Shown piece after piece: positions 1 to 403 of a stretch of DNA of 62,426 nt. Where the stretch lies: NCBI GenBank assembly GCA_041736805.1, contig JBGSSW010000007.1, forward strand, positions 1 to 62,426, written 5' to 3'. This stretch comes from Minisyncoccia bacterium (GTDB taxonomy: Bacteria > Patescibacteriota > Minisyncoccia > Phycocordibacterales > UBA918). The translations under genes were made by a program, and so were the position numbers. Each line of letters begins with the position of its first letter. Within the stretch, counting starts at the first letter, position 1. Below the pieces are notes generated by a model. That model saw nothing but the letters and a program-made list of their open reading frames with translations, did no database searches and was not told the origin of the DNA.

Positions 1-209
1 CGCCCTCATGAAGCCGGAATCGCTAGTAATCGCGGATCAGCAACGCCGCGGTGAATACGTTCCCGAGCCTTGTACTCACCGCCCGTCAAGTCAGGGGAGT
101 CGGGAGTGCCCGAAGTCCCACCTCGCGTGGGCCGACGGTAAACTCGATAACAAGGACTAAGTCGTAACAAGGCACGGCTAGCGGAAGCTGGTCGTGGATT
201 AATTCCAAT
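1..209 (+). rRNA. rrs: 16S rRNA, 3'-terminal fragment (helix 44-45 region), cut by the window start
   Basis: Contains GAATACGTTCCCG..CTTGTAC(T)CACCGCCCGTCA and AAGTCGTAACAAGG. An intact helix 45 follows (ACGGCTAGC-GGAA-GCTGGTCGT) and then GGAT. The universal TACACACCGCCCGTC site reads TACTCACCGCCCGTC, a CPR-style divergence. Confidence 0.9.
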
Positions 210-403
210 TGGACACGTCGGATTATAGGGGTGACCCTTTAACTCACGGCTAATTGGTCGATGTTATATGCCTCAATTGAGCATATAACGAGAGATGATA
301 CTTAATTCTCTGAAATAGTATCAGACCCCAGGGAAAGACCGGACTTTTAGGATAAGACAAAAGAGATTGTAAATTCTCCTTTTGCAAAATTGCTTGCATA
401 CGT

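Follow-up and report, generated by a model that had tools for sequence, protein, structure and literature searches.

A 16S rRNA tail without the CCUCC core in a Minisyncoccia bacterium, and evidence for SD-independent, often leaderless, translation initiation

The window analysed here, a stretch of 62,426 nt that makes up contig C7 of a Minisyncoccia genome assembly, opens with the 3' end of a 16S rRNA gene in which an intact helix 45 is followed by a tail that carries no CCUCC. Taken together, our results make it very probable that the gene is the genuine 16S of an ultra-small CPR bacterium lacking uL1 and uL30, that the lineage has lost the CCUCC core, and that its translation initiation is independent of Shine-Dalgarno (SD) pairing, with many first genes being leaderless. 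Since the CCUCC core is lost, the ribosomes cannot choose start codons through SD pairing. In the mechanism that we propose, extended −10 promoters would place the mRNA 5' end of the first genes of many transcription units at the AUG, or a few bases from it, and it is at the start codon itself that such leaderless mRNAs would be bound. Genes further down an operon, which often lie 1–10 nt from the previous stop or overlap it, would most likely be served by re-initiation or by A/U-rich unstructured spacers. The tail itself is still under strong purifying selection, which we attribute to its pairing with the 3' trailer of the pre-rRNA in a helix that would serve 16S 3'-end maturation; where the tail changed, the trailer has changed too, preserving the hairpin.

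The 16S rRNA 3' end

Positions 1–209 of the forward strand match the Rfam family SSU_rRNA_bacteria (RF00177) with 169.5 bits over model positions 1313–1533, the 5' side being truncated by the contig start. The features of this end are as follows.

1–213, + strand: 3' end of the sole 16S rRNA gene, 5'-truncated where the contig begins; delimited by the Rfam alignment (to 209) and by invariance within the genus (to 213)
174–195, + strand: helix 45, intact, 9 bp with a GGAA loop containing both KsgA-target adenines (from the sequence and the Rfam alignment)
196–213, + strand: 3' tail GGAUUAAUUCCAAUUGGA, with AUUCC at the usual place of CCUCC; invariant in 20 species of the genus

The two strands of helix 45 (174–182 and 187–195) enclose the GGAA loop at 183–186, and nine out of nine pairs form. 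The tail reads GGATTAATTCCAATTGGA as DNA, and its RNA form GGAUUAAUUCCAAUUGGA stands where bacteria usually have GGAUCACCUCCUUA; three consensus C's have changed (C to U, C to A and C to U), turning CCUCC into AUUCC. No CCTCC is present between helix 45 and the hairpin at 404–448 that likely terminates the transcript. Positions 1–209/213 are thus confirmed as the genuine 3' end of a bacterial 16S rRNA, with helix 45 intact and CCUCC(U) missing. The preliminary description, which was made from the letters of the window, had reported a tail without the canonical core, an intact helix 45, the lack of any CCTCC in the next ~150 nt and a CTCCTTTT at 376–383, and it was right on all four: the tail can be read directly and is identical in 20 congeneric species, the helix is fully paired within the Rfam match, the downstream stretch is free of CCTCC up to the hairpin, and the CTCCTTTT lies exactly there.

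The genome comprises 0.94 Mb in 20 contigs and is 99.8% complete, with a contamination estimate of 0.32%. We located 16S fragments in the assembly by conserved-primer motifs, and the sole other piece is the first ~84 nt of the gene, at the end of contig C13 (C13:21275–21364), which leaves a single 16S gene whose middle is unassembled. A search of the whole genome for Rfam families returned no 16S match because the assembled pieces are only about 84 nt and 209 nt long. The 3' end of the 23S rRNA lies at the start of C13 (positions 1–100), and the 16S is unlinked to it.

With positions 1–215 as query, BLAST against 60 relatives and our own genome recovered this end of the 16S in 45 out of the 61. 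All 20 alignable species of the genus have the very same 18-nt tail (18/18 columns invariant); columns 159–213, which span helix 45 and the tail, are invariant throughout (55/55) in these 20 congeners, and the next 27 nt (214–240) hold one invariant column (1/27). The remaining families of the order have tails of the type GGA[AU]U[AU]AUUC[CA]A, all without CCUCC, and related to ours but distinct (GGAAUAAUUCAAUUUGAA, GGAAUAUUUCCAACGGAA and GGAAUUCUUCCGAAGGAA). Further out, 301 genomes sampled evenly over the class yielded 190 with an assembled 16S 3' end, and only 78 of these differ from GGATCACCTCC by at most one mismatch. A sample of 150 genomes across the phylum gave about 87 assembled 16S ends from outside the class, and CCTCC is lacking in about 6 of them.

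The preliminary description had suggested comparison with sister genomes as a check on its reading, and all 20 congeners share the tail. The lone canonical tail that we met within the order is in genome G349, which holds two 16S 3' ends: a lineage-typical, CCUCC-less GGAACATATCCAATTGGAA on its contig C2 and a canonical GGATCACCTCC on its short contig C6. We discounted the latter, as its helix 45 belongs to the type common outside the CPR and the lineage-typical tail is present on C2; contig C6 is probably a contaminant. Over the class as a whole, a helix-45 variant CACGG(C/G)...(G/T)TCGTG precedes most CCUCC-less tails, and CATCCG...GGATG precedes most canonical ones. This distribution may point to a single large clade without the anti-SD and to a few independent losses, such as those with tail types GGAUCACUUCUUAUC and GGAAAAUAUUUUUAC.

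Predicted pairing of the tail with the 3' trailer

Folding of the tail together with the sequence that follows it points to a partner in the trailer, and adds three features.

205–211, + strand: tail segment CCAAUUG, predicted to pair with trailer positions 251–257 or to fold locally as UCC-AAUU-GGA (RNAalifold and single-sequence folds)
217–250, + strand: variable trailer hairpin within the tail/trailer helix, with compensatory changes between species
251–257, + strand: trailer segment UAAUUGG, partner of the tail, in a CTAATTGGTCG block that is almost invariant in the 16 species aligned

In the RNAalifold structure for 16 congeners, the helix 205–211:251–257 is stacked on a co-varying stem, and 7 of the 19 pairs keep pairing after two-sided changes. 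The columns of the tail/trailer helix proper are constant within the genus, so that its support comes from the adjoining co-varying stem and from comparison across families. There, the anti-SD position and the trailer change together over the order, the class and the phylum (CCUCC...GGGAG, UCUCC...GGAG, AUCC...GGAU, UCUCU...AGAGA, UUUCU...AGAAA and UUCC...GGAA). We measured this complementarity by a fixed-window test on 33 variants of the tail, all distinct and taken from the same three ranks: with its own trailer, the 7-mer in the anti-SD place makes on average 4.03 contiguous Watson-Crick pairs, as compared with 3.01 with permuted trailers (permutation p about 2e-4, with kinship ignored). 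The output of an automatic hairpin finder for the genus consisted of spurious long-range pairs and was set aside in favour of the fixed-window test and RNAalifold. We infer from these patterns that the constraint surviving on the tail is a precursor hairpin with the 3' trailer, used in 16S 3'-end maturation, and that, if canonical tails are taken as a guide, the mature 16S 3' end would lie in the hairpin loop, at about 209–213.

Could the conserved tail instead have acquired a new job in the mature ribosome, docking a protein (for example a divergent bS21 candidate) or folding on itself onto the mRNA exit platform? The invariance of 18/18 positions, which includes a 3' GGA beyond the canonical mature end, would fit such a role, as would the alternative mini-hairpins GGA/UCC and UCC/GGA that most families of the order could form and the weak bS21-like ORF that adjoins ybeY. 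However, the co-variation that we observe is with the trailer, which is normally removed, and the local hairpins are just 3–4 bp long, at −2.9 kcal/mol or weaker, and we consider a mature-ribosome role improbable.

Upstream regions of the genes

Our gene set consists of 912 long ORFs (code 11, 88% coding density), for which 904 upstream regions were examined; starts were called crudely, as the longest ORF or the first ATG, which blunts all the upstream statistics given here. There is no SD signal upstream of the starts, with G at or below 0.20 throughout −16 to −5. GGAGG occurs in 1.4% of the −20 to −1 windows, as compared with about 1% in controls, and GGAG, GAGG or AGGA precedes 12% of starts, as compared with 10% of control windows. 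By the same crude method, 50 kb of E. coli K-12 gave 38% versus 7% for the latter motifs, and therefore the method does detect SD use. The near absence of SD motifs, which the preliminary description had noted before most genes of the window and linked to the altered tail, thus extends to the whole genome.

It is worth asking whether the new tail has merely re-tuned the SD interaction, with UUCC or AAUUCCAAUU pairing with an upstream element of the GGAA or AAUUGGAAUU type. The retention of the UCC of the old core and the strong conservation of the tail would be expected if it had. Yet the tail-complementary GGAA, GGAAT, TGGAA, TTGGA and AATTGG are no commoner in −20 to −1 than in controls, so that the genome-wide enrichment analysis proposed in the preliminary description finds neither SD nor tail-complementary motifs in excess. 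Duplexes of the real tail with upstream windows are on average weaker than those of 57 of 60 shuffled tails, in a test whose power is low (z = −1.8 for the E. coli control). Moreover, the tail varies over the order (UUCC, UUCA, UUUC) in step with its own trailer, without a shared upstream motif. A re-tuned SD interaction is accordingly very unlikely.

Thirty-seven genes (4%) do have GGAGG, AGGAG or GAGGA at SD distance, and we met with nothing in this genome that would be able to read such motifs. They have a GC content of 0.47, as compared with the average of 0.40, are mostly short and are partly clustered, for example at C13:16.8–20.4 kb. Judging from composition and arrangement, these SD-bearing genes stand out as probable recent imports into this genome.

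Promoters and start codons

The hexamers most enriched in −20 to −1 are not SD-like: TATAAT (78 genes vs 13), TATACT (59 vs 8) and TAAAAT. The start position of TANNNT peaks at −12, where it is found in 117 genes over a background of about 30, with shoulders of 67–80 at −13 to −15. The −10 element thus precedes start codons at a fixed distance of 6–9 nt, well above background. These boxes carry the TG of an extended −10 in 35% of cases, as compared with 8% for TANNNT elsewhere, and a weak TTG is present at −35. In leaderless-rich prokaryotes, a −10 box about 6–7 nt before the AUG implies a 5'-terminal start codon. With the −10 hexamer at −12 to −7, transcription would start on the A of the AUG. 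These putative start sites suggest leaderless transcription, and the suggestion in the preliminary description that genes are largely leaderless gains support from the TANNNT peak at −12 and the frequency of the extended TG. On this basis, roughly one quarter of all genes, and 40–50% of those with an upstream spacer of 11–100 nt, look leaderless. The −10 box is found in only 17% of genes that lie 10 nt or less behind the preceding gene; such closely packed downstream genes are presumably reached by re-initiation.

A separate feature of the predicted starts is a T at −1, present in 61% of them and in all classes of operon position (54–69%). The same nucleotide is found at 36–72% in most sampled relatives, with outliers at 17% (G399) and 27% (G136), and at 31% in the E. 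coli control. The cause may be a Y−1/R+1 preference of transcription starts or an extended pairing with the initiator tRNA.

Processing of the 16S transcript

A leader/trailer processing stem classically brackets the mature 16S rRNA, and such a stem can be drawn here between contigs C7 and C13. The distal features are as follows.

349–364, + strand: 3' trailer side of the pre-16S processing stem, complementary without mismatch over 16 bp to the 5' leader at C13:21166–21181
376–383, + strand: CTCCTTTT, proposed as a distal tail; outside the processing stem and unconserved, a chance match
404–448, + strand: 21-bp perfect hairpin with the loop TTC, read from the sequence and missed by a simple terminator scan

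The hairpin at 404–448 is likely the terminator of both the solitary 16S unit and a convergent gene. The 16S is trailed by this hairpin of its own, not by a spacer tRNA and 23S, and the 23S 3' end and the 16S start are 21 kb apart on C13.

The preliminary description had raised the alternative that helix 45 is followed by an intervening sequence, with a CUCCUUU tail lying distally, at 376–383. If that sequence were excised, the mature rRNA would have an anti-SD after all. The CTCCTTTT does occur at that site, and insertions are a known feature of CPR rRNA genes (PMC9297842). However, it lies beyond the 16-bp leader/trailer stem, just before the 21-bp hairpin, and would therefore be removed along with the trailer. 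A CTCCT is missing from the 420 nt 3' of helix 45 in the closest relatives (L002–L004; 98–100% identical to the 215-nt 16S query) and is lacking in most of the genus, the congeners that have one having it at scattered positions. The stretch adjoining helix 45 does not vary, as would be the case in mature rRNA, and no rRNA-like sequence is found 3' of position 213, so that there is no insertion between two conserved rRNA segments. Finally, contigs from RNA libraries show no joints over positions 1–460, and one of them reads through 158–220 without a difference. The summed depth of these contigs (Logan) is about 30–60 over 161–208 and about 12 or less past 209, figures to be read with the proviso that contigs cannot show RNA ends and may include DNA carry-over. 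These observations refute the intervening sequence as proposed, and we see hardly any chance that it is correct.

That the tail is an artefact of assembly or binning at a contig edge, whether a chimeric join or a contaminant 16S, as might be suspected of a fragment that forms the first 209 nt of a contig with the remainder of the gene unassembled, can be dismissed with near certainty, given that the same tail with a homologous trailer recurs in 20 independently assembled species, that several relatives carry their copies deep within long contigs (such as those at 611 kb and 366 kb), that trailer and leader of the 16S, the latter on C13 of the same genome, form a perfect stem, and that estimated contamination is so low.

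SD use in relatives

We applied the same upstream test to 40–80 kb from each of 21 other genomes. Eight of ten class members that keep CCUCC, drawn from ten families, show no SD enrichment, the other two being marginal (p = 0.03 and 0.09). None of six CCUCC-less class members, one of them from the same order, is enriched (0/6), and among phylum genomes outside the class SD use is clear in two of five (p = 1.5e-5 and 6e-3). SD-independent initiation thus seems to extend over the whole class and either to predate the decay of the tail or to be independent of it, a lead that comes from small samples and crude start calls.

These comparisons lead us to a more general proposal, which we make tentatively and hold to be possible rather than probable. 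The Patescibacteria 16S tail may be kept mainly by rRNA maturation, through the hairpin between the anti-SD segment and the trailer, and through Era where present, and not by mRNA binding; SD initiation would have been dropped class-wide first, and the tail would then have drifted together with its trailer. If true, this would account for the many CCUCC-less tails, for the compensatory trailers and for the relatives that keep CCUCC without using SD motifs.

Ribosomal proteins and maturation factors

No candidate for uL1 (PF00687) was found in the genome, whereas 14 of 14 control genomes gave a match, and uL30 (Ribosomal_L30) was likewise without a match. Era is represented by sub-threshold matches of the GTPase domain alone. 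YbeY, KsgA/RsmA and a four-domain S1 protein are present in the genome. In addition, a 98-aa frame directly upstream of ybeY (C14:71603–72255) resembles bS21 with 21.6 bits, below the Pfam cut-off of 27; it may encode a divergent bS21 in a ribosome with an altered anti-SD neighbourhood.

Relation to known systems

Bacteroidota keep their anti-SD, hidden under bS21, bS18 and bS6. Their SD-independent initiation has reportedly been treated in NAR by Baez and colleagues in 2019 and by Jha and colleagues in 2021. The genome-wide lack of SD motifs here resembles that situation, as do the eight of ten CCUCC-keeping relatives that have an anti-SD without SD use; in contrast to it, the anti-SD sequence itself is gone here, and the main upstream signal is a −10 box, not only an A-rich context. 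Among leaderless-rich prokaryotes, Actinobacteria and Deinococcus have retained CCUCC and rely on SD motifs for their leadered genes, and differ from this genome, in which no SD system is left.

The closest precedent lies within the CPR itself. A survey detected the CCUCCU motif in only 48% of Parcubacteria, the motif-less lineages overlapping the group that lacks uL1 (Tsurumaki, Saito, Tomita and Kanai, 2022, RNA 28:1041; PMC9297842). Our genome shares the features of that anti-SD-less group, being a CPR genome with no CCUCCU and no match to uL1 or uL30, and the 78/190 canonical ends in our class sample come close to the 48% of that study. Loss of the anti-SD in this lineage is therefore already known, and the genome is an instance of what PMC9297842 reports; nothing essential differs, and the study does not cover the replacement of the motif, the promoter geometry at starts or the co-variation of tail and trailer. 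Full-text searches for literature tying Patescibacteria or Parcubacteria to leaderless initiation or SD usage found only PMC9297842. What may be new is the tail-trailer co-variation and the finding that eight of ten CCUCC-keeping relatives make no use of SD motifs, both obtained from small samples with crude gene calls. Mammalian mitochondrial 12S rRNA is likewise without an anti-SD (PMC10582724).

The Era GTPase offers a further point of comparison. As cited in PMC10582724, the site bound by Era is GAUCACCUCC, adjacent to helix 45 (Tu et al., 2011, PNAS). Era has been lost in most CPR (PMC10582724) and is reported to be absent from most Paceibacteria (PMC12641178). The element lost in our genome is exactly Era's binding site, and Era is sub-threshold in it. 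However, Era is also reported missing where the canonical tail is kept, and therefore its loss would be at most permissive for loss of the tail.

In practical terms, start-codon prediction and expression design for such genomes should not lean on SD models. More broadly, the lineage offers a natural bacterial ribosome that is unable to use SD pairing, and could inform how leaderless and re-initiation modes carry a whole proteome.

Neighbourhood of the 16S rRNA gene

One of the SD-bearing genes lies just behind the 16S, at 1014–1307 (97 aa, GC 0.53), with GAGGAG at SD distance. It is preceded by a strong, near-consensus TTGACT-17-TATAAT promoter at 909–937, which corresponds to a leader of roughly 70 nt. 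Farther along, a tRNA-Ile(GAU) is located at 2206–2280, on the strand opposite to the 16S.
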